Assembly (NCBI GenBank): GCA_963817785.1
Contig: CAWFPL010000008.1
Location: 912,463-976,462 of the forward strand
DNA: 64,000 nucleotides
Source: an uncultured Pseudomonadota bacterium
Lineage (GTDB): Bacteria; Pseudomonadota; Gammaproteobacteria; Burkholderiales; SG8-39
Direction of reading: 5' to 3'
The notes under the pieces were generated by a model. The model was given only the letters and a program-made list of their open reading frames with translations, was not told the DNA's origin and did no database searches. The first letter of the stretch is position 1. Every line of letters starts with the position of its first letter. Position numbers and translations under genes: made by a program. Of this stretch, positions 9,896-48,452 are shown piece after piece.

Positions 9896-10903
9896 ATGCA
9901 ACCCACCCCGGAACACCTGCGCTGGATGTACGAGAAGATGTCGCTTATCCGGCAGTACGAGGAGACCATGGCCAAGGTCTACCTCGAGGGCAAGCTGCCC
10001 CCCCACATTCAGAAGGGACTCGCGTTCGATATCGGATCGGGACCGGTGCCCGGCGAAATGCACCTCTCGGCGGGACAGGAGCCGGTCGCGGCGGGCGTGT
10101 GCGCGCACCTGAAGCGCGAGGACTCGGTCGTCGGCACGCACCGCGCGCACCACTTCGCCATCGCGAAGGGCGTGCCGCTCGATCGCATGACCGCGGAGAT
10201 CTTCGGCAAGGAGACCGGTCTCGGACACGGCAAGGGCGGCCACATGCACCTGTTCGACGCCGAGCACAAGTTCGGCTGCAGCGGCATCGTCGGCGCCAGC
10301 ATGCCGCAGGCCTGCGGCTTTGCGCTGGCGGCCAAGAAGCTCGGCAAGGACTGGGTTTCGGTGGCCTTCTTCGGGGAGGGCGCGGCCAATCAGGGGTCGT
10401 TTCACGAGTCGCTCAACCTCGCGGCGCTGTGGAAGCTGCCGGTGGTATTCGTGTGCGAGGACAACAAGTGGGCCATCTCGGTCGAGAAGAGCGTCGCGAC
10501 GGCGGTGCTCCGCAACAGCGACCGCGCCCCGGCGTACGGCATCCCCGGCGTGCACGTCGACCACAATGACGCGCTCGAGGTCTATGCGGCCGCGGGCGAG
10601 GCGGTGGCGCGCGCGCGCCGCGGCGAGGGCCCGACCCTGATCGAGGTCAAGACCGACCGCTTCTTCGGCCACTTCCAGGGCGATGCCGAGGCGTACCGGC
10701 CCAAGGGCGAGGTCGAGGAGCTGCACCGCCACGACCCGATCCCGGCGCTGGCCGCCGCCATCAAGCAGCGCGGCGTCGCCGACGAAGCCGCGCTCGAGCG
10801 CATGCGCGGCGAGGCCAAGCGCCAGGTCGACGCCGCCTTCGCCTTCGCGCGCTCGAGCGCCTACCCCCAACCCGCCGCAGCGCTGCAGCACGTGTTCGCC
10901 TGA
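9896..10903 (+). CDS. TPP-dependent 2-oxoacid/acetoin dehydrogenase E1 alpha subunit
   Basis: ORF 9806..10903. I set the start at ATG 9896, downstream of AAGGAGG. Motifs: GEMHLSAGQE, HRAH, GSGIVGASMPQA, FFGEGAANQGSFHESLN (TPP-binding). Confidence 0.85.
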   Translation: MQPTPEHLRWMYEKMSLIRQYEETMAKVYLEGKLPPHIQKGLAFDIGSGPVPGEMHLSAGQEPVAAGVCAHLKREDSVVGTHRAHHFAIAKGVPLDRMTAEIFGKETGLGHGKGGHMHLFDAEHKFGCSGIVGASMPQACGFALAAKKLGKDWVSVAFFGEGAANQGSFHESLNLAALWKLPVVFVCEDNKWAISVEKSVATAVLRNSDRAPAYGIPGVHVDHNDALEVYAAAGEAVARARRGEGPTLIEVKTDRFFGHFQGDAEAYRPKGEVEELHRHDPIPALAAAIKQRGVADEAALERMRGEAKRQVDAAFAFARSSAYPQPAAALQHVFA

Positions 10904-18601: not shown

Positions 18602-19020
18602 GCACATCATCACCCGCCACCACCCCATCCCTGCGCGGCAAGCGCATCCTGATTGCCAAACCCGGTCTGGACGGCCACGACGTGGGCGCCAAGGTGATCG
18701 CCTTGGCACTACGCGATGCGGGGGCCGACGTGATCTACACGGGACTGCGCAAGACTCCCGGTTTCATTGCACGTGCCGCGGTTGACGAGGACGTCGATGC
18801 CGTGGGGTTGTCAATTCTATCCGGCAGCCACAACGATCTGGTTGCCGAGACCATGGAGGAGCTGCGCGCCTTGAACGCCGTGGAGATTCCCCTGTTCGTT
18901 GGCGGCACCATTCCCGCTCATGACCAAGAGACGTTGCGCGCGCAAGGCGTGCGCGGGGTGTTCACGAGCGACATGCTGTTGGAGGACGTAGTCGCTTCGA
19001 TTGCACGCAGTCTCTCATGA
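18598..19020 (+). CDS. acyl-CoA mutase small subunit (B12-binding domain)
   Basis: 140 aa with RILIAKPGLDGHDVGAKVIALALRDAGADVIYTG (the DxHxxG cobalamin-binding motif) and SILSGSH. ATGA overlap with the large subunit. Confidence 0.85.
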   Translation: MSTSSPATTPSLRGKRILIAKPGLDGHDVGAKVIALALRDAGADVIYTGLRKTPGFIARAAVDEDVDAVGLSILSGSHNDLVAETMEELRALNAVEIPLFVGGTIPAHDQETLRAQGVRGVFTSDMLLEDVVASIARSLS

Positions 19021-20141
19021 GCCTGCCCCTGGAAGGCGTGCGGGTCATCGAGGTGGGCCATATGCTCATGGGGCCCTACTGTGGCATGCTGCTCGCCGAC
19101 CTCGGCGCGCAAGTGATCAAAATCGAGCCGCCCGAGGGCGACATCGGCCGAACCATCAGCCCCCACTGGATTGGCCCTCACAACGCCTATTTCGCCAGCC
19201 TCAACCGCAATAAGCAGAGCGTAGTGCTGGACCTCTCGTCTGTGGCTGGCCAAGAAGACTTGGGGAAGCTGGTGCAAGGCGCCCGCGGCCTGGTCACCAA
19301 CTTGCGGCCTACGGCGATTCGCAAGCTTGGCCTGACCTATGACCGTCTCAAGCGCTGGAATCCTAGCATCGTCTGCGTGGCGTTGACGGGCTACGGCCTC
19401 GATAGCCCTTACGCCGACCGTCCGGCCTACGACTACGTGATTCAGGCACTGACCGGCGTGATGGCGCTCACCGGCGACCCCGAGGGGCCGCCCACCAAGA
19501 CCGGGTATTCGGCGGTGGACAACTCAGCGGGCATCATGGGTGCCGTCGGTTTGCTCGCCAAGCTGGTCGAAGGCAAGGGCGGCCAGATCGACATAGCAAT
19601 GTACGATGTCATGCTGTCTCAGCTCAATTACCTCGCCGGCGCCTGGCTTAACGTGGGCGAGCGGGCCGAGCGATACCCGCGGTCCGCTCATCCTTACATC
19701 GTGCCGGCCCAGATCTTCCCGACCTGTGACGGCTGGGTAACTCTGTTCATCACCCACGATGACTTCTGGCGGCGGTTCTGCCTGGAGGTATCGCGGCCAG
19801 AATGGGTCGACGATGTGCGGCTAGCGACGATGGCAGCTCGGCGTGAAAACCGCAGCTTAGTCCTCAATCTAGTAAGTGGTGTCCTGGCCGCCGATACCAC
19901 TCAGCGCTGGGTGGCGCGACTCGCGCCCCTGGGCATCGTGATTGCCGGCGTCGAGAGCCTGGAGGCTGCGCTGGCAAGCGAGCATACGCGGTCCCGGGAT
20001 ATGGTCGTCGAGATACCGGCAGCGGGCGCGTCACTCCGTGCGGTGGGCAATCCGATCAAACTTTCCGGCGCCCGGGATCACTTCACGCCGCCGCCACAGC
20101 TCGGCGAACACAACGCAACCCTGCTCTCGGAGGGCCGATGA
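19017..20141 (+). CDS. family III CoA-transferase (CaiB/BaiF type)
   Basis: 374 aa. GVRVIEVGHMLMGPYCGMLLADLGAQVIKIEPPEGD...NRNKQSVVLDL is the family signature. ATGA overlap with the upstream gene. Confidence 0.85.
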   Translation: MSLPLEGVRVIEVGHMLMGPYCGMLLADLGAQVIKIEPPEGDIGRTISPHWIGPHNAYFASLNRNKQSVVLDLSSVAGQEDLGKLVQGARGLVTNLRPTAIRKLGLTYDRLKRWNPSIVCVALTGYGLDSPYADRPAYDYVIQALTGVMALTGDPEGPPTKTGYSAVDNSAGIMGAVGLLAKLVEGKGGQIDIAMYDVMLSQLNYLAGAWLNVGERAERYPRSAHPYIVPAQIFPTCDGWVTLFITHDDFWRRFCLEVSRPEWVDDVRLATMAARRENRSLVLNLVSGVLAADTTQRWVARLAPLGIVIAGVESLEAALASEHTRSRDMVVEIPAAGASLRAVGNPIKLSGARDHFTPPPQLGEHNATLLSEGR

Positions 20142-27027: not shown

Positions 27028-28179
27028 ATGAGCAATGATAACGAGCAGGAACGTCTGATCCTCGACGCAGTTGACCGTTTTTTGGAGACGGAGGTTAGAC
27101 CCCACGTGCAAGAACTCGAGCACGAGGACATCTATCCCACCGAAATCGTGGAAAAGATGAAAGAGCTCGGACTATTCGGCTGCACGATCTCCCAGGGCTA
27201 CGGCGGCCTTGGGCTTTCCACGTCGACCTACGCAAAGCTCGTCGAGCGCATTTCCGCCGTGTGGATGTCACTTTCTGGAGTCATCAACTCCCATCTGATG
27301 ATGGCCTTTGCGGTCGAGCGCCATGGAACCGAGGCGCAGAAACGCCATTTCCTGCCGCAATTCGCCACTGGGGAATTGCGTGGTGGCGTCGGTCTCACGG
27401 AGCCAAACGCTGGCACCGACCTGCAGGCAATTCGAACAGTCGGAGTGCGCGAAGGCGACCAGTACGTGATCAATGGAACCAAGATGTGGATTACAAACGG
27501 GCTTCATGGCAACTGCTTCTCTCTACTCGTTAAGACCGACCCCCAGGCCGAACCGCGTCACATGGGCATGAGCCTCTTCATTGCCGAGAAGGCTCAAGGC
27601 TTCACCGTCAGCCGAAAGCTGAAAAAGCTGGGTTACAAGGGCATCGACACCTGCGAATTGGTATTTAACGATTACCGCGTCGCCAGCGACCGGCTGATCG
27701 GTGGCAAGGAAGGGCGCGGCCTACAGCAAGTCCTTTCAGGGCTAGAGCTCGGACGCATTAACGTTGCTGCACGCGGCGTGGGCGTGGCACGCGCCGCACT
27801 GCAGGACGCGGTGGTCTACTCGCAGCAGCGACGAACGTTCGGCAAGCCAATTTGCGAGCATCAAGCCATCCAGCTCAAGCTTGGAGATATGGCAACCCGC
27901 GTCGAGGCGGCCCGCCTGCTCGTGGAAGCCGCGGCACGCGCGTTCGATCGCGGAGAACGCTGCGACATGGAATCCGGTATGGCCAAGCTCTACGCGACGG
28001 AAGCCGCAATGGACAATTCGCTCGATTCCATGCGCATCCACGGCGGCTACGGGTACTCGACGGAATTCAACGTTGAGCGTTACTTTCGCGACAGTCCCTT
28101 GCTATTGATCGGCGAGGGCACCAACGAGATGCAGCGCATCATCATCGCCAAGCAGCTAATCAAGCGGAATCCGGCATGA
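27028..28179 (+). CDS. acyl-CoA dehydrogenase
   Basis: 383 aa with GLTEPNAGTDL, KMWITNG, the C-terminal YEGTNEMQ-like GEGTNEMQRIIIAKQL, and catalytic-Glu context. Confidence 0.9.
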   Translation: MSNDNEQERLILDAVDRFLETEVRPHVQELEHEDIYPTEIVEKMKELGLFGCTISQGYGGLGLSTSTYAKLVERISAVWMSLSGVINSHLMMAFAVERHGTEAQKRHFLPQFATGELRGGVGLTEPNAGTDLQAIRTVGVREGDQYVINGTKMWITNGLHGNCFSLLVKTDPQAEPRHMGMSLFIAEKAQGFTVSRKLKKLGYKGIDTCELVFNDYRVASDRLIGGKEGRGLQQVLSGLELGRINVAARGVGVARAALQDAVVYSQQRRTFGKPICEHQAIQLKLGDMATRVEAARLLVEAAARAFDRGERCDMESGMAKLYATEAAMDNSLDSMRIHGGYGYSTEFNVERYFRDSPLLLIGEGTNEMQRIIIAKQLIKRNPA

Positions 28180-29366
28180 GCCTGCCCCTTCACGGCTTGC
28201 GTATCATCGCCGTGGAGCAATACGGCGCCGGGCCATTCGGCACACAGCACATGGCCGATCTCGGTGCCGAAGTCATCAAGGTTGAGAATCCCGAAGAGGG
28301 CGGCGACGTTGGACGCGCGGTGGGACCTTACTTTTTCGCTCCCGGCGACAGCCATTTTCACGAATCCTTCAATCGAAACAAGAAGAGCATCACGATTAAC
28401 CTCAAGAAACCCGAAGGGCAAGCGGTGCTTCACGATCTGGTCCGGACCGCTGACGGTGTTTTCGACAACCTGCGCGGAGATCTACCGGCCAAATTGGGTC
28501 TGACCTACGCAGACCTCAAGGCCCACAATCCAGCAATTGTCTGTGCACATCTTTCCGCCTACGGTCGAAGTGGATCCCGCGCTTCTTGGCCGGGATACGA
28601 CTACCTGATGCAGGCTGAGGCAGGATACCTTTCTCTGACAGGCGAGCCTGGAGGGCCGCCCGCCCGTTGCGGAATTTCGATCATCGACATGATGACCGGC
28701 GTTACTGCCGCGTTTGCGTTGTTGGCCGGAATCGTGAGCGCACGCAGTACGGGCATCGGCCGTGACGTTGACGTAAGCCTGTTCGACGTCGCTCTGCACA
28801 ACCTCACCTATCTTGGTACGTGGTACCTGAATGAGGGGGTAGCGGCGCAACGCGAGCCTCGATCGAGTCACCCTTCCCTCACGCCGAGTCAACTCTACCG
28901 TACCCGAGATGGCTGGCTTTTCATCATGTGCAACAAGGAGAAATTCTGGCCCCTGCTGGCGCAGGCCTTAGGGAAACCAGAGTGGGCCGAGCATCCGGAC
29001 TTCTGCAACTTCAAAGCGCGTCTTGCCAATCGCGCCCGATTAACCGAACTCCTGGACGAAGTGCTGAGCACTGCCACCACCGCGGAATGGCTCGAGCGCC
29101 TCAGTGGTAAGGTTCCGGTAGCTCCCGCTTACGGAGTGGCTGAAGCCTTGGACAATCCGTTTGTCAAAGAGCAAGAACGCGTCATCGAGGCTGAGCATCC
29201 GGTCCGCGGCAAGATTCGGACTCTTGCCTGCCCGGTGCGCTGTTCCGGCGAACCCGATCGGATCGGGATCGCCCCGGCGCTGGGCGAGGACACCGAGGCC
29301 GTTCTGCAGGCCATCGGCTATGACTGCGAGCAAATCGCTCAACTTCGCGAGAAAAGGGTGGTATGA
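28176..29366 (+). CDS. family III CoA-transferase
   Basis: 396 aa with GLRIIAVEQYGAGPFGTQHMADLGAEVIKVENP...NRNKKSITINL. ATGA overlap with the ACAD gene. Confidence 0.85.
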   Translation: MSLPLHGLRIIAVEQYGAGPFGTQHMADLGAEVIKVENPEEGGDVGRAVGPYFFAPGDSHFHESFNRNKKSITINLKKPEGQAVLHDLVRTADGVFDNLRGDLPAKLGLTYADLKAHNPAIVCAHLSAYGRSGSRASWPGYDYLMQAEAGYLSLTGEPGGPPARCGISIIDMMTGVTAAFALLAGIVSARSTGIGRDVDVSLFDVALHNLTYLGTWYLNEGVAAQREPRSSHPSLTPSQLYRTRDGWLFIMCNKEKFWPLLAQALGKPEWAEHPDFCNFKARLANRARLTELLDEVLSTATTAEWLERLSGKVPVAPAYGVAEALDNPFVKEQERVIEAEHPVRGKIRTLACPVRCSGEPDRIGIAPALGEDTEAVLQAIGYDCEQIAQLREKRVV

Positions 29367-32776: not shown

Positions 32777-33208
32777 ATGGCGCCAAGAGCCACTCTAGTA
32801 CTCGGCGTGATCGGCGCCGATATCCATAATATCGGAATCACCATCTTGGCCTCGGCATTGAGCTCCGCCGGGTTCAAAGTAGTAAATCTGGGAATCTTGG
32901 TGTCGCAGACAGAATTCGTGAAGGCGGCCGTGGAGACGGCAGCCGACGCAATTCTTGTCTCATCGCTGTGTGGCCACGGCGAGCTCGACTGCAAAGGCCT
33001 GCGCGCCCAATGCACCGAGGCCGGGCTCGAGAACATCGTTCTCTACGTGGGCGGCAATTTGGTCGTCGGCAAGCAGGACTGGGAGCCGATCGCGCACAAG
33101 TTCGTGGCGATGGGTTACGACCGTGCCTATCCACCTGCCACGACCCCGCATCGCGTGGTCGAGGACCTGACGGCCGATCTCGTAGACAAAGGGAGGGCAA
33201 GAACATGA
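32777..33208 (+). CDS. glutamate-mutase-like B12-binding small subunit (GlmS/MutS type)
   Basis: [32 protein letters not shown] (the DxHxxG motif) and [11 protein letters not shown] match methylaspartate mutase sigma. The start could be ATG 32777 or 32768. Confidence 0.8.
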
Positions 33209-34665
33209 CCCGCGTGCAAAGTAACACCCTCCCGAGCATGACGCGGTGGGACGAGGATCGCTTCCAGGAAGTGCGGCGGAGCGTGCTGGCAGCATGGCCC
33301 ACCGGTAGTGAAGTCGATCTTGACGAAGCTGCCGCCTACCACCGCGAGATGGCGCCAGCTAAGAACACCGCTTGGAGACTTCGACAGGCGCGCGCCCAAG
33401 GCACGACGCTGGTGCAACCGCGCGCCGGCGTCGCCGACGTCGAGCAGCAAATTGCGCTTCTCCAACGGCTACGAGTCGCAGGCGCAGATCTCCTCCCTAC
33501 GACTGTGGACTCGTACACTCGAGAATGCCGCTACGAGGATGCCGCGCGCGGCCTCGCGCAAAGCCGGGAAGCGGGCCGCTCACTGCTCAACGGCTTTCCC
33601 GCCGTCAACTATGGTGTACGAACTTGCCGTCGCCTCGTCGAGGCGGTGGATGCACCCCTGTTCGCTCGCACCGCGGCGCCCGACTGCCGCCTTACTCACG
33701 AAATCATGTACGCGGGCGGCTATAGCTCGTGCACGGCAGGCCCGATTGTCTTCTCGTTGGGGTATGCCAAGGATTATCCTCTGGCGAATGCGATCGAAGC
33801 CTGGCAATACTCGTATCGCATGATGGGCGCCTACCATGAGCGGGGCGTCACCTTGAGCGTCGAGCACTACTTGCCGATCTCGACCTTGGTCCCGCATGCG
33901 ACGTCGATGGCCTGCGCGCTCCTGGATTCCCTGATCGCCGCCGCGCAAGGTGTGCGCGACATCTCCCTCGGATTCGGCCAGCAATGCCATCTTGTCCAGG
34001 ATGCCGCCGCGCTGCGCGCCTATCCGGCCCTCGGCCGTCATTATCTCCACACCTTCGGCTTCACTGACGTAGAACTGAGCACGGTGATGTCGCAGTGGAT
34101 GGGTGGGTTTCCCAGCGACGAAGGACAGGCGTTCGGTGTCATCTGCATGGCCGCGCTCGCCGGTTACCTGGGCGGCGTTACTTACATGATCTCGAAGTCG
34201 CCCCACGAAGCGGCAGGCATCCCAACACCAGAGGCGAACATGCACGGCGTGAGTGCCTCGAAGATGGTGCTCAGAATGCTCGCTGACCAAAAGCTCGCCC
34301 CCATCCCAGAGATTGCCGCCGAGCAAGCGATCCTGGAAGCCGAGACGCGAGCCATCGTAGACCGCGCGCTCGAGCTCGGCGAGGGAGACGCCGCTCTGGC
34401 GGCAATTCGGGCGATCGAAGCCGGCGTCATTGACGTGCCCTTCTCGCCGCATCGTTCGAACGCCAACCAAGCGCTGCCGGCGCGAGATTGGCGCGGCGCT
34501 GTTCGGCTCGCGCAAGTCGGGGGCGTGCCGATTCCGAAGGAAATCCGCGAGCATCACCAGGCCGAACTCGCACGCCGCACGGCAGGGCGGGCAGAACGGC
34601 AACCCTGGGAACTGTTACTAGCCGATGTGAACGCGATCAGCGAAGGCATGCTGCTCCCCGACTGA
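33205..34665 (+). CDS. glutamate-mutase-like large subunit (GlmE/MutE type), atypical active site
   Basis: ATG 33205 forms an ATGA overlap and gives 486 aa. The protein is collinear with clostridial GlmE as I recall it: [42 protein letters not shown]-like [11 protein letters not shown], and [11 protein letters not shown]. Confidence 0.8.
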
Positions 34666-34690: not shown

Positions 34691-35137
34691 GTGAGCCAAC
34701 AACCTTTACGCGGTGTGCGGTTCGTAGATCTCACGACGGTCCTGATGGGCCCTTTCGCGACGCAGATTCTTGGCGATTACGGCGCTGACGTCATCAAAGT
34801 TGAATCGCCCGCGGGAGATCCCGTACGCGGAATCGGTCCGGCCCGCCAACCGGTATGGGTTCGATCTTCCTGCAGGCCAACCGCAACAAGCGCAGCCTGG
34901 TGCTTGACCTGCGCACTTCCGAAGGCCTGGCGTTATTGCGGGAGCTCATCGCCACTGCAGACATCTTCGCCTACAACTTGCGACCGCAGGCGATGGAAAA
35001 GCTCGCTCTTACGTATAGCGGTCCATGTAAGCGCCGAGATCCTCGCCTCGCTCGGTCGCGCACCGCAGGACATCGCGGCGCTGGCCGAACGCGCCATCAC
35101 CCGGATCGACCCCGAAAGCGCTGCGCTGCCGACCTAG
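34691..35137 (+). pseudogene. family III CoA-transferase remnant (frameshift plus large internal deletion)
   Basis: Frame 2 reads [44 protein letters not shown]. Frame 1 (ORF 34855..) continues with [25 protein letters not shown]...[13 protein letters not shown]. Frame 2 then gives only the extreme C-terminus ([20 protein letters not shown]). About 250 central residues are missing. Confidence 0.8.
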
Positions 35138-36012
35138 GCTCGCCTACGTCCCTCGACGGGCTTGGTTGGCAGCTTGTCCGGCTTGCTCGGACCCCACACG
35201 CGGCTATAGTAGGTGTCGGCGAGCTGCAGCGCACCGACCGGGTTGTGCGCAAGCACACGGTCCTTCGTGACCAGCGTGGTAACCAGTCCCCGCGAGTAGC
35301 GGATGAACAGACTGTCGTGCCCCACGCACAGGCCGACGATTACGTTCAGCTCACAACCGGCACGGTTAAGTAGTTCGGCCTGCGATATGGGATTGCAGAT
35401 TGCCTCGAACGTTCCTGGACGGATCTTATCTTCGTCCTTGAGCCCGATTTCCTCCTTCGGCACACCGCCGTTCTTGCAGGCGACCGAGGCGACTTCCAGC
35501 CCGTGGCTCTCGAGAATGGCGCTAAACACGCGCGACAGATCGACGAAGCTAATGCAGGTGGCGATGCCGACGTGGCGAAACCCCATGCGCTTGGCAAAGT
35601 GACAGATCTCCTCGACCCGCGTCCACTTGCAATAACCTTCGCTTTCCACAGCCGCCGAAACTCGCGCGATGCGCTCGATGAAGGGATTGCGTCGATAATC
35701 CTGCGCATCAGCGATACCCTCGGGGTCGACCTTGGATGGGCAAAATCCGGGGCCTCGCTCATCGCTCTCCCCTTGGCGACATGCGCGAACCGTGTTCGGG
35801 CAATACGCGCAGGCCGGCGTTTCGTATGCAGCCACTACCGCATTCTTAATCCAGGGGTCATACAAAACGAGCCTACGCTCAGCCTCAAGCCGCTTCAACC
35901 GTTTTGAGCTGAGCGATTCAAGATTCTCCCTTGAAGGGGAAACGATGGATTCCAGGCGCAAATGCGACTCGTTCCGGCGACTCACGGGAACCGTGACGGC
36001 AGCACACGTCAA
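35134..36012 (-). CDS. Cys-rich metal-binding protein (DUF1847-like by recollection)
   Basis: Track ORF of 292 aa with [20 protein letters not shown] and [14 protein letters not shown]. The true start is uncertain, since several internal TTG/GTG codons are available. Confidence 0.5.
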
Positions 36013-36336: not shown

Positions 36337-36430
36337 TGGCGGAAGAGGTAGGAGTCGAACCTACCAGAGACGTCAGACGCCTCTCCCCGGATTTGAAGTC
36401 CGTGCGTCCCACCGGGGACGTTGCTCTTCC
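36337..36430 (-). tRNA. selC: tRNA-Sec (anticodon UCA)
   Basis: The reverse complement reads GGAAGAGCAACGTCCCCGGTGGGACGCACGGACTTCAAATCCGGGGAGAGGCGTCTGACGTCTCTGGTAGGTTCGACTCCTACCTCTTCCGCCA. It has the anticodon loop CUUCAAAUC, a long variable arm, the T-loop GGTTCGACTCC and a 3' GCCA. It is closely collinear with E. coli selC as I remember it. Confidence 0.9.
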
Positions 36431-38241
36431 TCGGAAAGCTTGCGTGCGAAGCGCAGGTCGCCCGCTCGCCGCGTGTAGCCGGCCTCGTCGAGGTACTCGA
36501 GCATCGCAATCGTCAGATTGCGGCCGAGGCCGCTGCGGTCGCGAAACTGCGCCGCCGTGAATCCGCGTTTTTTCGACTCGCGGTCCAGCGTCACCGCCAG
36601 ATCCACTAATCGGTCGACCATCTCCGGCAAGAAGAAGCGGTTCGGGGCCACGCGATGCACACGCCCCGCGCGCGCCACCCGATGCAGGAATTCGGCCACC
36701 ATCTTGGGCTCCATCGCGACACGCTCCGCCAACTCGTGTACTCGAGGGGGCCTGCCGCCCTCGCCCCCGAGGAGCAGCGCGCACCTTTGCCAAAGGACCT
36801 CATCCTGCGCCGAGAGTGCCGGGACGTGACTGGGCAGGCGCAGGCTCGGGCCTTCGCGCGCGAGTTGTCCGGCGCCGACCAGGGACTCGATTACCGCCGC
36901 GAGCGGAGCACCGACGTCTGCTGGCCGCGGGCCGATCGCATCAGGATACGCCGCGTGCCAGGCAGCGACGGAACTCACAAGCGCCTCGCAATGCGCCTCC
37001 CACCGTTCTCGCCGCATCATGTGGCGCACCCCGCGCACGGCGAAGGCGACGAGTCCCTCCGCACGAAGGGGAGGAACGTGGAACGTCCTTTCAAACCACT
37101 CAACGTTCACTATTCCCTTGGTCAACAGAGCGTCGAGGGCCTGTTCGGCGGATCGGCCCACGAACAGCCCAAGCGTGGCGACGCGCTCGGGCCGCGAAGC
37201 GCCTCGTTCGGGTGGCAGCGGATCGACCACCACACCCGCGCCGACGAGTCGCCAGGAGCCCGGATCGCGCAGCAGCAGACGGTCGCCGTGCCACGCCGAA
37301 ACCGCGCGCGGAAAAGCAAGCCGCGCAAAGCGCCCGAATGGCGAGAGCCTCGCCTGCAGCATCGCGGTACCCAAGTGCACGCCGAGCGTGACGGCCCGGA
37401 CGAGTGGCGCCTGGAGCCACGCCACCTCGATGTCGACGTGCCGCGACACGGGCGCAGGTGCCGAATCCGCAAGCACATCACCGCGCTGCAGCTGGCCGCG
37501 CGCGACGCCGTGCAGGGCTAGCGCGCAGCGCTGTCCAGCGGTTGTGCGAGCCGCTTCGCAACCGTTCGCGCGCAAACTGCGCACGCGCGCGCGGCGTGCC
37601 GCGGGCAGCACCTGCACCTCGTCCCCCAGCGTGACTGCGCCCGACAGGACGGTGCCCGTGGCGACGAGACCAATGCCGTCGATCACGAAGGCGCGATCCA
37701 CGTTCATCCGGAAACGTGGCGCCGTGGCGTGCGGCGGCACGCTGCCGGCGATGGCGGTGAGCCTATTACGCAGCCCATCGAGCCCGTGGCCGGTGACCGC
37801 GGACACCTGCAGAACCTCGGATCCCTCGAATCGGCCCCGGGCGAGTAGAGCACGCAATTCGACCTCTGCCTGCGCCGCGCGCTCGGGCGCCGTGCGGTCG
37901 ACCTTGCTTAGCACGGCGAGCAGCCGCGGCGCACCGAGATGCTCGAGGATGGCCACGTGCTCGCGCGTCTGCGGCATGGGTCCGTCGTCGGCAGCAACCA
38001 CCAGCAGCGCGAGGTCAATACCCTGCACGCCTGCAGTCATGTTGCGCACGAAGCGCTCGTGCCCCGGTACGTCGATGAACGCAATTGGCGCGCCGCCGGC
38101 GAGGGGCAGATAGGCGAAGCCGAGGTCGATGGACATGCCGCGGCGCTTTTCCTCCGGCAGCCGATCAGTGTCGACGCCGGTGAGCGCGCGCACGAGGGCG
38201 GTCTTGCCGTGGTCCACGTGGCCGGCCGTGGCGACGATCAC
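36373..38241 (-). CDS. selB: selenocysteine-specific translation elongation factor SelB
   Basis: 622 aa with [30 protein letters not shown] and the C-terminal winged-helix region. GTGA overlap with selA. The ORF 3' end runs 58 nt into selC. Confidence 0.9.
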
Positions 38242-39629
38242 AGCGTGCGGCCTTCGAGCTGATTAAGAAAGGCCGCCTCCTCCTCCAGGCAGCGCAGGTC
38301 GAGCCACAGCGCGTCGTTGTGAATGCGCCCGATCACAGGAATCGGCAGGGAGCGGAGCGATTGTGCAATGCGCGCGGGCTTCACCGTCGCGGAGGCAATG
38401 CGCAGCGCTGCGCTCGGCAGGCGGTCTACCGGCAACGACCCGCTGCCGACCTGGCTCGCGCAGCCCTCGACCGTCACTTCGGCCTGCGCACCGCAGAAGC
38501 GCTGCACCCGCGGCAGGACACGCTCGGCAAGGGCCGCGATGTCTGCGGCGGGCCGCGTCAGGACCCGAAGCGTGGGCAGTCGCTCGCGTAAGCGCTCCGG
38601 ATCCAGGTACAAGCGCAGTACTGCCTGCAATGAGGCGATGCGGCCCTTGTCCAGTCGCAATGCGCGCTTCATCGGGTTGTTGCGTAGCCTTTCCACGAGC
38701 TCGCGCCGGCCGACGACCAGCCCTGCCTGCGGACCGCCGAGCAGCTTGTCACCGCTGAACGTGACGAGGTCGGCCCCCGCCGCAAGCGCGCGCATGGGCG
38801 TCGGCTCGGCGGGCAGACCCCAGCGCTCGAGCTGTGCGAGGGCGCCGCTGCCCAGGTCGACGATGAACGGTAAACCGTGGGCGTGCGCAAGGCGCGCCAG
38901 CTCGGCTTGCGGCGGGGCGGCGGTGAAGCCCACCAGCGCATAGTTGCTCGGGTGAACCTTCAATATGGCCGCCGTATCAGGGCCGATTACCCTCTGGTAG
39001 TCGACGAGGTGCGTGCGGTTCGTGGTCCCCACCTCGCGCAGGCGGCAGCCCGCCGCCTCGATGATTTCCGGGAGGCGGAACGAGCCACCGATCTCCACGA
39101 GCTCGCCGCGCGACACCGGCACTTCGCGCCCTGCGGCGAGCGCATTGAGCGCGAGCAGCACAGCGGCCGCATTGTTGTTTACGGCGGTGGCCGCCTCTGC
39201 GCCCGTAATGCGGCAAACGAGCATCTCGAGGTGTGAGTCGCGCTCCCCACGTTCGCCCGCCTCGAGGTCGTATTCGAGGTTCAAGGGCTCGGCGAGAGCC
39301 GCGCCACAGGCCTCGATCGCCTCGCGCGGCAGGAGCGCGCGCCCGAGGTTGGTGTGCAGCACTGTGCCGGTGAGGTTGAACACGCGGCGTAGCGTAGGCC
39401 GCGCAGCCGCCTCGAGCCGGCATAGCAGCGCATGCACGACGCCGTCATAGGACAACGCGCCCGCGGCGCCCGCCTTCAGCGCCGCCCGGTGCTCCGCAAG
39501 CAGCGCGCGCAGTTCGGCCACAACCACTTCGCGCGCACAGGTGGCGATGGGCACAGCGAGGCGTGGGTCCCGTAGGATCCGGTCGACCGAGGGGATAGTG
39601 GCGAGCGGCATGGCAATCATCGTACCCAC
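38238..39629 (-). CDS. selA: L-seryl-tRNA(Sec) selenium transferase SelA
   Basis: About 460 aa with [27 protein letters not shown], and [13 protein letters not shown] (PLP-Lys region). The start is ambiguous: GTG 39629, ATG 39620 or ATG 39611. Confidence 0.9.
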
Positions 39630-39686: not shown

Positions 39687-40610
39687 ATGGAACTGCGCCA
39701 GCTGCGCTACTTTGTGCGTATCGTCGACTTGGGAAGCCTCTCCAAGGCGGCAGCCGACCTCTATGTCGCTCAGCCCGCGCTCTCCAAGCAGATGGCGGCG
39801 TTGGAGGGTGAGCTGAGGACCGCGCTGCTCGTCCGCAGCCCGCGCGGCGTTACCGCGACCGAGGCCGGGCACACCTTCTACCGGCAGGCGCAGTCGGTGC
39901 TGCGGCAGATGGCGCGCATCCCGGACGAGGTCCGCTCAGCCGAGGCCAGCCCCACTGGCGTGGTCGCGATTGGCATGCCGTTTAGCGCCTCCAATATCTT
40001 AGCGCCCGCCCTAGTCAAGGCGGTGGGCGAGCGTCTACCTGGCATTCGGCTGGCCATCACGCAGCAAGGTAGTGGTCAGCTCGAAGGTCTGCTCGCCGGA
40101 GGCCGGCTCGACCTGGGCCTGCTCTACGAACGCGCGCGACCCTCGCCGCAAATCGAGGAGCAGCGACTCCTGACGGAGGAGCTGTACCTTGTCACGCGCG
40201 CGCCTGGCAGTAAGGCAAGCGCTACGCTCGCGGAAGCGGCCCGCCAGCGCCTCATTCTGCCAGGGCCCTTCAATTCGACCCGCCAAGTCGTCGAAAGGGC
40301 CTTTATCAAGGCGGGCCTCGAACTGGGGCTCGCGGCCGAGGTGGATGTGCCCTGGTCGAGCGCCGCGATGGTCGCGGCTGGGCTGGGCGCCACGATCGTG
40401 TCGCGTTCAGCGCTGTACCCGGAGAGGCCCGGAAGTGGCCTCAGCGTCAGGCGGATCGTACGCCCGGCGCTCACCCGCGCGCTGAATCTATGCAACGTCC
40501 GCGGCGAAACACCGGCGCACACGGTGGCGCTGGTGTCGCACACCGTGCGGCAGGTCGCACACGACCTCATCGAGCGCGGCGCCTGGCGCGGGGCGGCCAG
40601 CCATACCTAG
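39687..40610 (+). CDS. LysR-family transcriptional regulator
   Basis: 307 aa with MELRQLRYFVRIVDLGSLSKAAADLYVAQPALSKQMAALE, the LysR HTH. Confidence 0.9.
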   Translation: MELRQLRYFVRIVDLGSLSKAAADLYVAQPALSKQMAALEGELRTALLVRSPRGVTATEAGHTFYRQAQSVLRQMARIPDEVRSAEASPTGVVAIGMPFSASNILAPALVKAVGERLPGIRLAITQQGSGQLEGLLAGGRLDLGLLYERARPSPQIEEQRLLTEELYLVTRAPGSKASATLAEAARQRLILPGPFNSTRQVVERAFIKAGLELGLAAEVDVPWSSAAMVAAGLGATIVSRSALYPERPGSGLSVRRIVRPALTRALNLCNVRGETPAHTVALVSHTVRQVAHDLIERGAWRGAASHT

Positions 40611-40688: not shown

Positions 40689-41810
40689 ATGTCCGCTCAA
40701 CTCGCCCCCGCTTCTACGCCAGCCGGCCCGGTGCCAGAAGGCACCGACCTAGTCGAGTGGTACTACGAGCAGGGCTTCTCCGACGGCCTGCCAGTAGTGC
40801 CGCCTACGCCCGCCAAGCTGGCGGCGATGCTTGAGGCGCTCGGCGGCGATCCCGGAAAGCTCGAGGCGCGCGTTCCGCCGCGCTGGGGCGGACTCACGCG
40901 CGAAGTGCTGGCGATAAACATGGTGCTGGCGGGCTGCAAGCCGGAATACGCCCCAGTCGTACGCGCAGCGATACTGGCGCTGTGCGAAACCGCATTCAAC
41001 CTGAACGGAGTGCAGGCCACTACGCACATGGCTTCGCCGCTGCTCGTGGTAAACGGGCCAATCGCGCGCAAGATCGGAATGAACGCCGGGTGCAATGCGT
41101 TCGGCTCGGGCAACCGCGCCAACGCCACTATCGGCCGTGCGATCCGGCTCATCCTTCTCAACGTGGGCGGCGGCTGGCCTGGCGATCTGGACAAAAGTAC
41201 CCTGGGCCATCCCGGCAAGTACACCTACGCGGTCGCCGAGAACGAGGCGTTGGGACTCCTTGCCCCCTACCATGTCGAGAAGGGTTTCAAGGCCGAGGAT
41301 TCCACCGTGTTCCTGATGGCCGCGGAGCCGCCGCACAGCGTTACCAACCATGTTGCCAACGACCCGCAGGGCATCCTCGATTCTATCTGCTCGGCGATGA
41401 GCACGTTCGCGCACAACAATGCGGTGTCGAGCGGCCATTGCGCGGTGGTGCTCGGGCCCGAGCACGCGGCAACGATCGCGAAGCATGGCTGGAAGCGCCA
41501 CGACGTAAAGAACTACCTGTGGACGAACTCGGGCAACAAGTTCGGTCAACTCGCCTTCAACCACCGCTACGGCAAGGTCTACAACCGCAGCCTCCCGGTG
41601 TGGTACAAGAGGGAGCTTGACTCGCACATTCCGATCGTGCCGAGCGCGGAGAACATCCACCTATTCGTCATCGGCGGCGAGGCCGGGCGCTTTTCCGCCT
41701 TCATCCCTGGTTGGGGCCACATGACCTCGCCCGTGCTGCGCGAGATCGAAGGCAACGCCAGGCCGTTGCAGGGCGGCCCGCGCTGTGTCGACGGTACCTG
41801 CTATCTCTGA
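40689..41810 (+). CDS. conserved-looking protein of unknown function (373 aa)
   Basis: A GAGGA RBS precedes the start. Blocks such as GFSDGLPVVPPT, LAINMVLAGCKPEY, FNLNGVQATTHMASP and NRANATIGRAIRLILLNVGG look like a real enzyme, but I cannot assign a family. It lies 16 nt upstream of the selenoprotein gene. Confidence 0.7.
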   Translation: MSAQLAPASTPAGPVPEGTDLVEWYYEQGFSDGLPVVPPTPAKLAAMLEALGGDPGKLEARVPPRWGGLTREVLAINMVLAGCKPEYAPVVRAAILALCETAFNLNGVQATTHMASPLLVVNGPIARKIGMNAGCNAFGSGNRANATIGRAIRLILLNVGGGWPGDLDKSTLGHPGKYTYAVAENEALGLLAPYHVEKGFKAEDSTVFLMAAEPPHSVTNHVANDPQGILDSICSAMSTFAHNNAVSSGHCAVVLGPEHAATIAKHGWKRHDVKNYLWTNSGNKFGQLAFNHRYGKVYNRSLPVWYKRELDSHIPIVPSAENIHLFVIGGEAGRFSAFIPGWGHMTSPVLREIEGNARPLQGGPRCVDGTCYL

Positions 41811-41826
41811 CAAAGGAGGCGTCCTA

Positions 41827-42366
41827 ATGCAACCTGTATATGACCCGCGCGGCGTGGTCGGGGCTGAGAAGAAGGCCACCGCGGCGCGCATCAAGGCGCT
41901 CGACGGACTGCGCCTGGGCATTCTCGACAACACCAAATGGAATGCCAACAAGCTCCTTCGCGAACTGCGGGATCAGCTGCAGACCGGACACCCGCTCGCC
42001 GAGGTCCACTATTACCGCAAGGAGAGCTTTTCGCGGTTCGCCGCCCCCGAGCTTATCGAGCAAATCCGCGCTGAGAACGACATCGTCGTCACCGCCATCG
42101 GCGACTGAGGCTCGTGCACGTCGTGCTGTATGCATGACGGCATCAGTCTGGAGTCGCTGGGCGTACCGACCGCGGTGATCGTGACGACGGTGTTCCTGCA
42201 CGAAGCGCGCGTGCAGCGTGAGGCGCTCGGGATGACCGGCATCGTACCGGTGGTGATCGAGCACCCGCTCTCGTCGCTGTCGGATGAGGAGATCCGCGGC
42301 CGCGCGGCACAGGCGCTCGCCCAGGTGATCGGCGTGTTGCAGGGCACCCAGCCCGATCCCTTATGA
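41827..42366 (+). CDS. selenoprotein with in-frame UGA (Sec) at 42106-42108, motif AIGD-U-GSCTSCC (UGSC-type)
   Basis: Track ORFs 41785..42108 and 42130..42366 are in the same frame and are separated only by this TGA. ATG 41827 follows AAGGAGG. GC3-rich coding continues across the TGA. A SECIS-like hairpin lies just downstream, and selABC are nearby. The stop overlaps the next gene (ATGA). Confidence 0.75.
42114..42143 (+). promoter_or_regulatory. bacterial SECIS-like stem-loop
   Basis: gtgc(a)cgtcgtgc-tgtat-gcatgacggcat forms about 12 bp with a bulged A at 42118. The 5-nt loop UGUAU contains GU, and the apex lies about 20 nt 3' of the UGA. Confidence 0.55.
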
Positions 42367-43592
42367 GCGGCGTGCTCGAGGGCCTCATGGTCCTCGACCT
42401 TACGCGCTTCCTCTCGGGCCCCCACTGCACCCTGCTGCTTGCGGGCCTGGGTGCGGAGGTGATCAAGATCGACGAGCCAGCGCGGGGCGACCCGGCGGCG
42501 CTCGCACCCCCTTTCGCGGGTCCCGCGGGCGCCTCCCTTGAGCGCGCCTCGCCCGGCGACTACGGCATCGCCTATCTCAAGCGCGCGCGCGGCAAGCAGT
42601 CCGCCATGCTCAATCTCAAGGACCCGCGCGGATGCGAACTCTTCGTGCGCCTTGCCGAACGCGCGGACGTCGTGGTGGAGAACTTCCGACCAGGGGTGGC
42701 CGAACGTCTCGGCATCGGTTACGAAGTGCTCGCAGCGCGCAACCCGCGCCTCGTCTATTGCGCGCTCTCCGGCTACGGCGCCACAGGGCCTGATAAGGAC
42801 TTGAAGGCGTACGACCTGATGGCGCAGGCCGCGGCCGGGCTTATGAGCATCACCGGCGCCCCCGAGGGGCTACCGATGAAGACCGGCGGCGCGCTTTCCG
42901 ACATGATCGCCGGCTCGTACGCCGCGCTTGGCATCGTGGCGGCGCTCCACGCCCGGGACCGGACTGGGTTCGGGCAAGCGATCGACGTGTCAATGCTGGA
43001 TTGCCTGTTCTCGATGATGATGGACGAGCCACTCGACTGCTACGAGAAGCTCGGGCTGGCTGCGCGCCAGGGCAACCGCATCATGCGCTTCTCGCCGTTC
43101 AACGCCTTTCGCGCGCGCGACGGCTGGGTGACGGTCGGCGCGGCCACGCAAGACGAGTGGAATGCGTTGCTCGAAGCCATCGACCGCAATGACCTGCGCG
43201 CCCACGCGGGGTTCAGCCGGGTCGAGTGGCGCATCGCGCACAACGAGGATGTCGATCGTATTGTCGGCGAATGGACCGCGCATCTCACCGTGCGAGAGGT
43301 GATCGACCGTCTGCGCCGCGCAGACGTGCCTTGCGCTGCCGTGCGGACGCCGCAGGAAGCAATTGCGTGCGCACAGCTGAAGATGCGGGGCATGGTGCAA
43401 GAGTTGCGCCGCCCTGACGGGAGCGGCACAGGCGTCGCGGCGGCGGACATACCACTCAAGTTCAGCCGTTCTGCTGCATCGCACGATCGACCTGCACCGG
43501 TGCCGGGCGCGCAGACCGCGGCCGTGCTGGAAAGGTTTCTAGGCCTTTCCGCGGGCGAGATCGCCCATTTCCAAGCGCAAGGAATCGTCTAG
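42363..43592 (+). CDS. family III CoA-transferase
   Basis: 409 aa with GLMVLDLTRFLSGPHCTLLLAGLGAEVIKIDEP and ENFRPGVAERLGIGY. ATGA overlap with the selenoprotein stop. Confidence 0.85.
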   Translation: MSGVLEGLMVLDLTRFLSGPHCTLLLAGLGAEVIKIDEPARGDPAALAPPFAGPAGASLERASPGDYGIAYLKRARGKQSAMLNLKDPRGCELFVRLAERADVVVENFRPGVAERLGIGYEVLAARNPRLVYCALSGYGATGPDKDLKAYDLMAQAAAGLMSITGAPEGLPMKTGGALSDMIAGSYAALGIVAALHARDRTGFGQAIDVSMLDCLFSMMMDEPLDCYEKLGLAARQGNRIMRFSPFNAFRARDGWVTVGAATQDEWNALLEAIDRNDLRAHAGFSRVEWRIAHNEDVDRIVGEWTAHLTVREVIDRLRRADVPCAAVRTPQEAIACAQLKMRGMVQELRRPDGSGTGVAAADIPLKFSRSAASHDRPAPVPGAQTAAVLERFLGLSAGEIAHFQAQGIV

Positions 43593-44229
43593 CGACCATC
43601 GCTGGTAGGGATGGAACGTGCACGCCGCCATCGTTCCTCACAGGCCATAGCTTGGATCCGCCTGTTGAATTCCGAAACGCTTTGACCCGCATTTTCGTCT
43701 CGTGTTGACGCGGGTGAAGTCTCGAAGCCTGTGCGAAATCAGACGGCCCCGTGACTGGCGTCGTGGGCAGCGACGGAACCACGATTGACGAGCAGCGCGC
43801 CGCGCTCGCCCAGATCGTAGAGTGGAGCGGATCGAGTTCGACCCGGCGACAGGCGAAGGCCGGGTGATTTACCGGCTCCCGCTCGGTGCCGGGGCCCGGT
43901 TCAACATGCGGAAAGCCGCTCGGGAGCTAGGGCTCTCCGCGAGCGAGGTATGGATGGCGTCCCCACGGGGATCTGAGCTTTGCGCTTCAGAGACGCTGAG
44001 CTGGGAGTATCGAGCAGCGGCTTGACGCGCTGAGCGCGTTTCCAGCGTTCTCAAGCTAGGGGGGTAGCAGCTCGCGCGGCTGCGCGTAGCAAGACGCAGC
44101 CTGACCGTGATTTCGAGCTGTCTTGGGGTGCTGGCAGCGCGCGCTAGGGGGGCATGATCCCTGAGCTGTTTCATCGCTCGCTGAGCGTTTCTAGCGCGTT
44201 CCAGATAGGGGGGAAACAGAGGTCTAGTA

Positions 44230-46933: not shown

Positions 46934-47575
46934 ATCGAGTAGGGCGGGAGGTTACCCTCCCGGCCCTCTCACACCACCGGACGTGCGGTTCCGCATCCGG
47001 CGGTTCATGAAGCACACTGGAGGCGCTGCTGAGTAGCGAGCAACGAGACCAGCCCCATGTGAGTGAAGGAGGACGTGGGAAGCGCCTGGTTCAGGTGCGA
47101 GGCCCCGGCGTTCCACCAGGGGCCGCGCCCGTTCACCGAGGACTTCCACGCCCGCTCGGGGTCGAGCCCCAGAGCAATCAGGCGGCGCCGGCGCGTGGCC
47201 GGGCGCTTCCACTGCCGCCACAGTAGGCAGCGCAGCCGCCGCCGCAGCCACTGGTCGAGCTCTTCCAGGACGCGGACCCCCGGCGCGTGCCGGAAGTATC
47301 CGATCCAGCCCCGCAGCAGCGGGTTCAGATCCTCGATCGTGTGCCGCAGCGACCGACCGCGCCCTATGCGCAGCAGTTCCCGCACCCGCTCCTTGAACCG
47401 GGTCACGCTCTGCGCAGCGATGCGCAGCCTCGTGTCCCGCTGTGCCGTAACGCTGTAGCCGAGGAACTTGCGCTTCCACGGTCGTTCCACCGCGCTCTTG
47501 GCCGTGTTCATGCGCAGCTTGTTAACGGGGGTCGAGAACCGCGTGTTGCTGGGGTTTGACGCGCAGCGCCCCTAA
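46934..47575 (-). mobile_element. group II intron 3' remnant (truncated IEP, domain V, domain VI)
   Basis: A maturase-domain ORF is followed by a domain V-like hairpin at 46973-47005 (ACCGCCGGAUGCG-GAAC-CGCACGUCCGGUGGU with a 2-nt bulge). A GC-rich domain VI-like hairpin ends ...CCCUACUCGAU at 46934. Confidence 0.6.
47005..47511 (-). pseudogene. group II intron reverse transcriptase/maturase, C-terminal fragment only
   Basis: NTAKSAVERPWKRKFLGYS...LNPLLRGWIGYFRHA...LRCLLWRQWKRP is the GIIM maturase pattern. The RT palm/finger domains are absent upstream. Confidence 0.7.
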
Positions 47576-47628
47576 AATCCTTCGCCGCGTAGGTTCGATG
47601 AATTTCTGATCGTGCGCTCACCCGCGCA

Positions 47629-47696
47629 GGGATATCCACGGCGGCGCGCGGGCGGCGATCAAGACGCACGCGAACGCGTGCCGCGGTGGATATCCC
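47629..47696. repeat. 17-bp inverted repeat (1 mismatch) with a 34-nt spacer
   Basis: gggatatccacggcggc (47629-47645) pairs with gccgcggtggatatccc (47680-47696). Confidence 0.6.
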
Positions 47697-47872
47697 GTCG
47701 GCGCGCTGCCCGTTGCCCAATTTGCCCGGTGAGATGGGTTCGACGCCTGAGCGGGCGGCGCAATGCTCTGAGGTGTTGTACCTTGGGTCTCGAGGCTGTG
47801 ATGAGCGGCTCGCTCGATCGGCTGGGCCGATCGGCCAAGGCCGCGGGCTCGCGCTATTCTTGAGCGCAGACG

Positions 47873-47921
47873 CCGCAAAAACGAAGGCCCGGGCGAGTTC
47901 CTGGAAGAACCCCGGGCCTTC
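47873..47921 (-). terminator. strong hairpin followed by a T5 run on the minus strand
   Basis: A perfect 11-bp stem gaaggcccggg/cccgggccttc (47883-47893 with 47911-47921) has an inner gttc/gaac pairing. On the minus strand it is followed by gTTTTTg (47875-47879). Confidence 0.45.
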
Positions 47922-48017
47922 TACACGGGCGGCGCACGCGAAGCGCGCGCGCGTCGTCTGCATTGCCTTTATGCCCGCAATGCACGGCGTTGTCCAGTCC
48001 TTGCCTGGAACGCGTGC

Positions 48018-48452
48018 ATGGCGGCGGTGCCCGAGGCGTCTCATCGGCTCTACAACTGCCGGCGTTGCGGCGAGCAGGTGCAGGTGTGCCGGGGCTGCGA
48101 CCACGGCAACATCTACTGCGCCGGGGGGTGCGCGGCGCTTCGCCGGCGCGAGTCGTTACGCCGCGCCGGGCAGCGCTACCAGTTGAGCTTCCGCGGGGCG
48201 TGCCGCCACGCGGCGCGCCAGCGGACCTGGCGCATGCGCCAAGCCCATAAAGTGACGCATCAGGGTTCCCCTCGTGCCGCCTTGGCTGCCACAGTGGTGG
48301 CTACTTCGCTTGACAGCACAAGGCTGGTACATGATGGCCAAAGTCCGCCGGTTGGATCGCGCACCTTGCCGGGCGCGGGGCCGCGCTGCAGTTTCTGCGC
48401 TCGGGCGCTCTCGGCCTTCGCACGGTTGGGAGCGTTACGCGGCGGACCATAA
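48018..48452 (+). CDS. Cys-rich (zinc-ribbon-like) small protein upstream of istA
   Basis: 144 aa with YNCRRCGEQVQVCRGCDHGNIYCAGGCAALRRRESLRRAGQRYQ. It ends 15 nt before istA. Confidence 0.5.
   Translation: MAAVPEASHRLYNCRRCGEQVQVCRGCDHGNIYCAGGCAALRRRESLRRAGQRYQLSFRGACRHAARQRTWRMRQAHKVTHQGSPRAALAATVVATSLDSTRLVHDGQSPPVGSRTLPGAGPRCSFCARALSAFARLGALRGGP

Follow-up and report, generated by a model that had tools for sequence, protein, structure and literature searches.

A 'UGSC-containing protein' was reported in 2007 as a selenoprotein of unknown function (PMC1976440), Hyphomonas neptunium and ocean metagenomes being the first sources of the family, which in a 2026 review still counts as uncharacterised (PMC13188914). 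In the Global Ocean Sampling data UGSC ranks among the top five selenoprotein families, with 255 selenocysteine (Sec) and 21 cysteine (Cys) sequences, and in non-marine samples it is the most frequently used selenoprotein family of all (PMC2398784). The papers found to mention UGSC are all catalogues, and no function has been proposed in nearly twenty years. An earlier note on the DNA analysed here, made from the sequence alone, had described the family as poorly characterised with no known function, and the literature agrees (PMC1976440, PMC2398784, PMC13188914). The present analysis concerns a UGSC-family gene at positions 41827-42366 of a 64-kb stretch of an uncultured Pseudomonadota genome (contig CAWFPL010000008.1; this whole stretch of 64,000 nucleotides (nt) is referred to below as the window), together with the gene immediately upstream of it, here termed the partner.

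The gene has the same length and the same U/C-G-S-C column as the catalogued UGSC proteins, and it belongs to a family in which Sec and Cys forms coexist; no difference was found for the gene itself. The family has been catalogued since 2007, is described by curated models and carries a name in the NCBI pipeline, and therefore the finding of the gene as such is already known. What is added here is its context, namely the partner, gene fusions, a linkage to coenzyme A (CoA)-transferase genes and a predicted fold. The partner, a fusion to a thioredoxin-reductase-like domain and the CoA-transferase linkage are absent from the catalogue papers, and the fold predicted here is flavodoxin-like, whereas a thioredoxin-like fold was suggested in the catalogue literature.

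The glycine and D-proline reductases offer the other useful comparison. In these systems a small Sec subunit of the U-x-x-C type (GrdA, GrdB or PrdB) is combined with a larger non-seleno subunit (GrdE or PrdA), an arrangement that UGSC and its partner share, and here too a thioredoxin system would be a plausible reductant and small carboxylates plausible substrates. The resemblance is architectural only: UGSC and the partner are without detectable homology to these enzymes, there is no sign of a pyruvoyl cofactor in the UGSC system, and the hosts of UGSC are mostly aerobic Proteobacteria rather than fermenting anaerobes. On the evidence below, the UGSC-family selenoprotein, with its predicted Sec insertion, is probably the redox subunit of a two-protein enzyme formed with the partner and fed by a flavoprotein. 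The features of the gene are as follows.

41827-42366, plus strand: UGSC-family selenoprotein gene, 179 codons, with predicted Sec94 in AIGD-U-GSCTSCC
41813-41819, plus strand: ribosome-binding site AAGGAGG, 7 nt 5′ of ATG 41827, by direct reading of the sequence
42106-42108, plus strand: putative Sec-encoding UGA, codon 94; a TGA/TGC column in relatives and Cys in full-length homologs
42114-42143, plus strand: predicted core of a bacterial selenocysteine insertion sequence (SECIS), with an 8-base-pair (bp) upper stem, a bulged A, a 4-bp lower extension and the loop UGUAU
42100-42158, plus strand: predicted extended hairpin, the lower stems of which include the UGA itself; -36.6 kcal/mol, z = -5.68

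Two open reading frames (ORFs) of frame 1, 41785-42108 and 42130-42366, are both present in the ORF list and are parted by the TGA at 42106-42108, as the earlier note had pointed out. Translation across it reads ...DIVVTAIGD*GSCTSCCMHDG..., and the terminal stop is TGA 42364-42366, which overlaps the start of the next gene (ATGA). The second ORF was said to lack a ribosome-binding site or sensible start, and indeed its nominal ATG at 42130 is located within the apex of the hairpin and is not preceded by such a site. Sequence 3′ of the TGA has a G+C content at third codon positions (GC3) of 0.87 in frame, as compared with 0.67 and 0.47 in the other two frames, and the ratio of nonsynonymous to synonymous substitution (dN/dS) against eleven relatives is 0.09-0.43 after the TGA and 0.09-0.25 before it. 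Coding on both sides of the TGA, as had been proposed, is thereby borne out, and the statistics of 42109-42366 are unlike those of non-coding sequence. Same-frame ORF pairs with a single TGA between them and coding-like GC3 on both sides occur at two sites in the window. The candidate at 10901 does not have the look of coding read-through and was rejected; the UGSC TGA is the only convincing read-through candidate in the window.

When the 179-residue protein was scored on family profiles with its Sec replaced by Cys, it matched NCBIfam NF041046, 'UGSC family (seleno)protein', with 164 bits (cutoff 125; profile positions 2-146 of 147) and Pfam PF24696 with 200 bits (cutoff 25; positions 2-171 of 172). 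The family label given in the earlier note thus holds, since both curated cutoffs are exceeded from end to end. A search of 5.8 billion proteins returned 1,506 relatives. The 120 best homologs are all full length, the top matches being 52-63% identical to the window protein, and the column of the Sec is nearly invariant as Cys (at least 90%). Strong conservation continues past this column, with G95, S96, C97, S99, C101, D104 and E109 invariant, as are T120, F123, E126, H146, P147, S149 and R159 further on. Homologs that continue beyond the TGA with Cys at its position are therefore the rule, and termination at that point is not seen among them.

The same column can be followed in genomic DNA. 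The motif is visible in 76 of 80 related loci, where the Sec codon position is TGA in 66 and TGC in 10. The TGA loci come from Burkholderiales, Nitrosomonadales, several Alphaproteobacteria, 'Deltaproteobacteria', Methylomirabilales and Entotheonella; cultured carriers of the Sec form include Vineibacter terrae and Reyranella (Alphaproteobacteria), and cultured carriers of the Cys form include Advenella, Bordetella petrii and Parapusillimonas. In public assemblies automated gene callers split the gene into products of 93 and 78 residues. Together with the contiguous Cys homologs, the SECIS element and the nearby sel genes described below, the TGA/TGC distribution upholds the proposal that the in-frame UGA is a Sec codon: 41827-42366 is, on this comparative evidence, a single gene in which TGA 42106-42108 is predicted to be read as selenocysteine.

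SelB loaded with GTP and Sec-tRNA(Sec) attaches to a SECIS element at its apical loop and delivers Sec to the UGA in place of termination. The stem-loop that had been reported at 42114-42143 (about 12 bp, a bulged A and a UGUAU loop) is present as described. Its upper stem pairs 42119-42126 with 42132-42139, the bulged A is at 42118 and the loop spans 42127-42131, giving 12 bp in total; the core folds at -17.6 kcal/mol. The extended hairpin is not equalled in stability by any of 200 dinucleotide-preserving shuffles. The bacterial SECIS consensus of Zhang and Gladyshev, taken here from Fig. 2 of PMC13188914, specifies a loop of 3-9 nt, an upper stem of 4-16 bp, a minimum free energy of -7.5 kcal/mol or lower, a G among the first two loop bases that is usually followed by G or U, and a spacing of 16-37 nt between UGA and loop. 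The geometry of the hairpin was claimed to suit a bacterial SECIS, and it agrees with all four published criteria: a 5-nt loop on an 8-bp upper stem (with 4 bp more past the bulge), a loop U-G-U-A-U whose G is invariant in 61 distinct sequences, a spacing of 18 nt (42109-42126), and energies, for core and extended forms, well within the consensus range. Like other bacterial SECIS elements it lies within the coding region directly after the UGA; its sequence is unrelated to that of the Escherichia coli fdhF SECIS, and no Rfam model detected it at gathering or permissive thresholds.

The apical hairpin is predicted in every TGA locus and in no TGC locus. Pairing is found in 83% of cells across the 61 distinct sequences; in controls with the 3′ partners shifted by 1-3 columns the figure is 30-42%. 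Six apical pairs are intact in every sequence, G-C gives way to A-U at pair 18:36 in 12 sequences, and pair 21:33 is paired throughout by way of G-U, G-C and A-U, so that the hairpin is kept with covariation across the orthologous TGA loci. The lower stems are lineage-specific, with pairs that are partly conserved. At the apex the codons are frozen, Cys100 being TGC and Cys101 TGT in 67 of 67 loci. Moreover, over codons 97-104 (42115-42138) Sec genes encode invariant C-T-S-C-C-M-H-D whereas Cys genes encode C-(T/C)-S-x-C-x-R-D, with Arg nearly invariant where the Sec forms have His. This difference between the two peptides suggests that the RNA hairpin dictates part of the peptide, and the SECIS seems to constrain the encoded protein sequence.

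The genes for Sec incorporation lie close by on the opposite strand.

38238-39629, minus strand: selA, selenocysteine synthase (TIGR00474, 569 bits, cutoff 268)
36373-38241, minus strand: selB, Sec-specific elongation factor (TIGR00475, 393 bits)
36338-36431, minus strand: selC, tRNA-Sec with anticodon UCA (ARAGORN; Rfam RF01852, 73.8 bits)

Profile searches, ARAGORN and Rfam thus confirm selA, selB and selC at 2.2-5.5 kb upstream of the UGSC gene, where the earlier note had placed them, and the SelB protein includes the SECIS-binding winged-helix domain PF09107 at residues 558-598. No match to selD was found in the window, in a weak test with an approximate E. coli SelD query, and the gene may lie elsewhere in the genome. 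Among the related loci, selA or selB is found within 8 kb of UGSC in 21 of 66 TGA loci and in 0 of 10 TGC loci, and in two loci (L029 and L032) these genes lie 3′ of UGSC on the same strand. This proximity and same-strand order suggest that in these organisms the Sec machinery has UGSC as one of its main clients.

The sel region has several features of its own. The selB frame extends 59 nt into the tRNA-Sec gene, so that the final ~20 selB codons fall inside the 5′ portion of selC; an overlap of identical length is seen in 7 related loci, and in 7 others the selB frame reads through the whole tRNA. A metagenome-assembled genome of Betaproteobacteria (L014) carries two tRNA-Sec genes, at 268-361 and 1740-1833, about 1.4 kb apart. 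The sel genes of the window are flanked by a homolog of the methylaspartate (glutamate) mutase E chain (32968-34665; PF06368, 514 bits) and by a DUF1847 protein (35134-36012), a homolog of which is also found near UGSC in another locus (L031).

The UGSC gene itself stands in an apparent operon with the following order, after which there are ~650 nt of intergenic DNA.

39687-40610, plus strand: LysR-family regulator, upstream of the module; a LysR gene is adjacent in many loci
40689-41810, plus strand: partner gene, 373 residues, ending 16 nt before the UGSC start
41827-42366, plus strand: UGSC gene, as above
42363-43592, plus strand: family-III (CaiB-type) CoA-transferase (PF02515, 372 bits), last gene of the operon

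The start of the CoA-transferase gene overlaps the stop of UGSC, and the two are probably translationally coupled. No consensus promoter or terminator was found for the operon, and the LysR protein, at 134 bits on the 'selenium metabolism-associated LysR' model, falls short of the 250 bits required.

The partner is the most constant element of this neighbourhood. Neighbourhoods were taken from pre-annotated contigs and targeted tblastn searches, our own clustering of ORFs being confounded by long antisense ORFs in this high-GC DNA. In essentially every locus with upstream DNA a partner of 68-92% identity lies directly 5′ of UGSC, and its sequence is more conserved than that of UGSC. The UGSC gene, usually split at the TGA, also adjoins the partner in 11 of 11 annotated contexts, including those with partners only ~40% identical. 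The partner family is very large: at least 7,994 relatives were found, all labelled 'hypothetical', and an exhaustive profile search gave 5,588 representatives at 50% clustering, 1,540 of them with E <= 1e-30. The partner has no match in Pfam even at E <= 10, and none in NCBIfam or among PDB sequences. A scan of 60 diverse homologs on NCBIfam likewise gave no real match, a profile built from 60 diverse members found nothing in PDB sequences, and profile searches of PDB sequences with the UGSC and partner families returned nothing below E = 0.2.

Conserved residues of the partner fall into two sets. A constellation of D32-G-L-P..P-P-T40, C83, T112, N145, G149-R150, E184 and G329-G330 is found throughout the superfamily, and the close subfamily alone has an invariant C366-x4-C371 in a C-terminal tail of low model confidence, which is missing in the wider superfamily. 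In addition, partner Cys251 is present in 59 of 59 Sec-type loci and 0 of 9 Cys-type loci, and Cys135 in 55 of 59 and 1 of 9, respectively. It is suggestive that these two residues appear to track the Sec state of UGSC; phylogeny is a confounder here, the Cys class amounting to little more than a single clade. Longer forms of the partner, of ~420 and ~710 residues, carry extra regions (P0252, P0259 and P0271 are without a Pfam match), and in one divergent locus (L096, 1448-2527) the partner and a Sec-truncated UGSC are separated by a 359-residue ORF without a Pfam match, possibly a paralog of the partner.

Gene fusions tie the two proteins together more directly. UGSC is followed by the partner in a single polypeptide in P0278, P0279 and P0286, and the reverse order occurs in P0245 and P0265, both truncated at UGSC profile position 92; P0245 ends in '...VVTAIGD', at the residue preceding Sec. 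A 'UGSC/Unknown_1 fusion' also appears in the 2008 paper, and no match of it to the partner could be made. In P0301 the partner is followed by a thioredoxin-reductase-like domain (TIGR01292, 331 bits, redox motif CAVC), with a Sec-type UGSC gene directly upstream, and thioredoxin-reductase-like genes also lie near UGSC in L090 and L094. On the 3′ side, a family-III CoA-transferase immediately follows UGSC in 25 of the 62 loci for which the available DNA sufficed. The distant locus L094 has one as well; the order partner, UGSC, CoA-transferase recurs in a distant lineage under an IclR regulator. Recurrent neighbours comprise TctC and DctM carboxylate transporters, acyl-CoA dehydrogenase, acyl-CoA synthetase, thioesterase, 2-hydroxyacid dehydrogenase and thioredoxin-reductase-like genes.

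The fold of UGSC was modelled on the closest Cys homolog (P0001, 62% identical) as a proxy for the window protein. The AlphaFold2 model (predicted local distance difference test (pLDDT) 90, predicted template modelling score (pTM) 0.84) is a (βα)5 sandwich with the Sec/Cys position at the start of helix 3, so placing a UxxC-type motif, U94-G-S-C97, at a helix N-terminus. The PDB entries closest to it are flavodoxin, WrbA and lumazine synthase, with template modelling (TM) scores of 0.4-0.5; the top 50 consist of flavodoxin-like proteins and include no thioredoxin. The model thus points to a flavodoxin-like α/β fold and leaves the 'Trx-like fold' suggested in 2008 unsupported, to the extent that a proxy sequence with TM scores of only 0.4-0.5 allows. 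For the partner, Foldseek comparison with the PDB returned class-I fumarase and Toblerone-fold hydrolases at TM ~0.2, and these were rejected as not credible.

From these elements a working scheme can be drawn. A ribosome that reaches UGA 42106 would meet the SECIS hairpin 18 nt downstream, and the expected product would be a flavodoxin-like α/β protein of ~180 residues with Sec94 where a strand passes into a helix and Cys97 a single helical turn further on (U-x-x-C). Such a pair would be well placed to alternate between the selenol/thiol and selenenylsulfide states. Rather than a free-standing antioxidant, UGSC would then be the smaller, redox-active subunit in an obligate enzyme of two proteins, in which the partner may provide the substrate site (conserved Asp32, Cys83, Arg150 and Glu184) together with the flexible C-x4-C tail that members of this subfamily have at the C-terminus. 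In the alpha subunit of class Ia ribonucleotide reductase a C-terminal dithiol tail shuttles electrons from thioredoxin to a buried active site. The partner likewise ends in C-x4-C, probably on a flexible tail; this is pure analogy, and the partner tail differs in being limited to a close subfamily. Electrons from NAD(P)H would enter through the thioredoxin-reductase-like flavoprotein. The module would be co-transcribed with the family-III CoA-transferase under the LysR regulator, and this linkage makes a carboxylic acid, or the CoA thioester of one, the probable substrate.

Several observations weigh against this scheme or weaken its supports. Of 76 loci only 7 have a thioredoxin-reductase-like gene within 3 kb of UGSC, and one such gene is possibly the housekeeping trxB; the adjacency of the CoA-transferase is frequent and not universal. 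The 80 related loci are a sample biased toward relatives of this window. The UGSC fold was read from a proxy and its matches are generic, and the partner model is of moderate confidence (pLDDT 74, pTM 0.80) and without a credible PDB match. A synonymous-entropy test over the SECIS (codons 95-105) is borderline overall (p = 0.053), which we ascribe to the variable wobble positions being the covarying ones. Finally, the number of invariant residues in UGSC is far above what a plain electron carrier would require, and a direct part in catalysis is therefore possible.

An alternative is that UGSC itself carries out catalysis, as the selenoprotein of a substrate reductase similar to glycine or D-proline reductase, and is more than an electron carrier. 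The partner would hold the substrate for attack by Sec94, which would lie in a nucleophile-elbow-like G-D-U-G-S turn; resolution of the adduct by Cys97 would give a selenenylsulfide, to be re-reduced by a thioredoxin-reductase system. The very many invariant residues, the strand-to-helix position of Sec in the model, the obligate partnership with fusions in both orders, the linked thioredoxin-reductase-like donor and the tracking of the Sec state by partner Cys135 and Cys251 are all consistent with such chemistry, and a UxxC motif also occurs in PrdB (table in PMC2398784). The correlation of Cys135 and Cys251 with the Sec state is, however, phylogenetically confounded, there is no sign of a pyruvoyl group, and UGSC has no match to GRDB (PF07355) at E <= 10, hmmscan having returned only PF24696 and a 12.6-bit hit to ERO1. 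The partner, moreover, has no family match of any kind at E <= 10 and therefore none to Gly_reductase, which we take to be the PrdA/GrdE family. On this evidence the catalytic role is the less likely of the two.

The same body of evidence bears on three further explanations, each of which fares worse than a redox subunit acting with the partner. In close homologs C97 and C101 are fully conserved and C94 is kept in at least 90%, these three Cys/Sec positions lying on the same side of a helix; Cys100 makes a fourth in the window protein, and a DUF1847 gene adjoins selC. These features could suit a U/C94-x2-C97-x3-C101 site that holds a metal or an iron-sulfur cluster, or that carries selenium or sulfur, with no selenenylsulfide cycling. 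Cys101 is, however, replaced in the fusion P0279 (CGSCTSWAV), which leaves only U/CxxC as universal, and the thioredoxin-reductase-like fusion points to dithiol/disulfide chemistry, so that such a site is very improbable. The default in the selenoproteome literature, a free-standing thiol oxidoreductase or antioxidant of thioredoxin fold whose neighbours are coincidental, draws on the 'likely Trx-like fold' and the grouping with redox proteins found there (PMC2398784, PMC13188914) and on the position of the UxxC motif at a helix N-terminus. It sits poorly with a (βα)5 model that resembles flavodoxin, WrbA and lumazine synthase before any thioredoxin, and with a partner that is adjacent in all annotated contexts and fused in both orders, and we consider it very improbable. 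That there is no read-through at all, the locus being a nonsense pseudogene or two separate small genes of 93 and 78 residues, has in its favour the products reported by gene callers in public assemblies. Nevertheless, the TGA occupies an identical column in 66 independent genomes and is followed by invariant GSCTSCCMHD, both halves are under purifying selection, the second piece has no ribosome-binding site and its ATG lies in the hairpin loop, Cys homologs are contiguous, the SECIS is conserved and sel genes are adjacent; the chance that read-through does not occur is accordingly slight to the point of being negligible.

Other features of the window were noted alongside. The region is rich in CoA-transferases: further full-length family-III paralogs lie at 19017-20129 and 28176-29363, ~30% identical to the copy in the UGSC operon, and a 148-codon ORF at 34691-35137, between the glutamate-mutase-E-like gene and the DUF1847 gene, keeps only the first ~40-48 residues of such an enzyme and is an apparent gene remnant, uncalled in an identical public contig (L081). 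In the intergenic DNA 3′ of the UGSC operon a 35-nt direct repeat (44036-44070 and 44185-44219, 77% identical) contains TAGGGGGG, of which a third copy lies at ~44146. Further downstream, 46934-47005 on the minus strand matches the Rfam group II catalytic intron RF00029 (46.2 bits, gathering score 40), beside which the minus-strand ORFs 46952-47479 and 47508-48104 are without a Pfam match.

Overall, the UGSC gene of this window has the marks of a textbook-quality bacterial selenoprotein split by gene callers. The constant pairing with the partner, the fusions and the frequent company of a CoA-transferase yield a concrete and testable hypothesis of function, for which cultured hosts are available with both Sec and Cys forms, and they flag a very large partner superfamily that lies outside all domain databases. 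Tentatively, and with some doubt on our part, UGSC and the partner might together constitute an undescribed and widespread two-subunit (seleno)cysteine-dependent reductase, driven by a thioredoxin-reductase-like flavoprotein and acting on a carboxylate or acyl-CoA substrate. If true, this would be a new enzyme class with a logic like that of the glycine and proline reductases, unrelated to them in sequence and belonging mainly to aerobic Proteobacteria.

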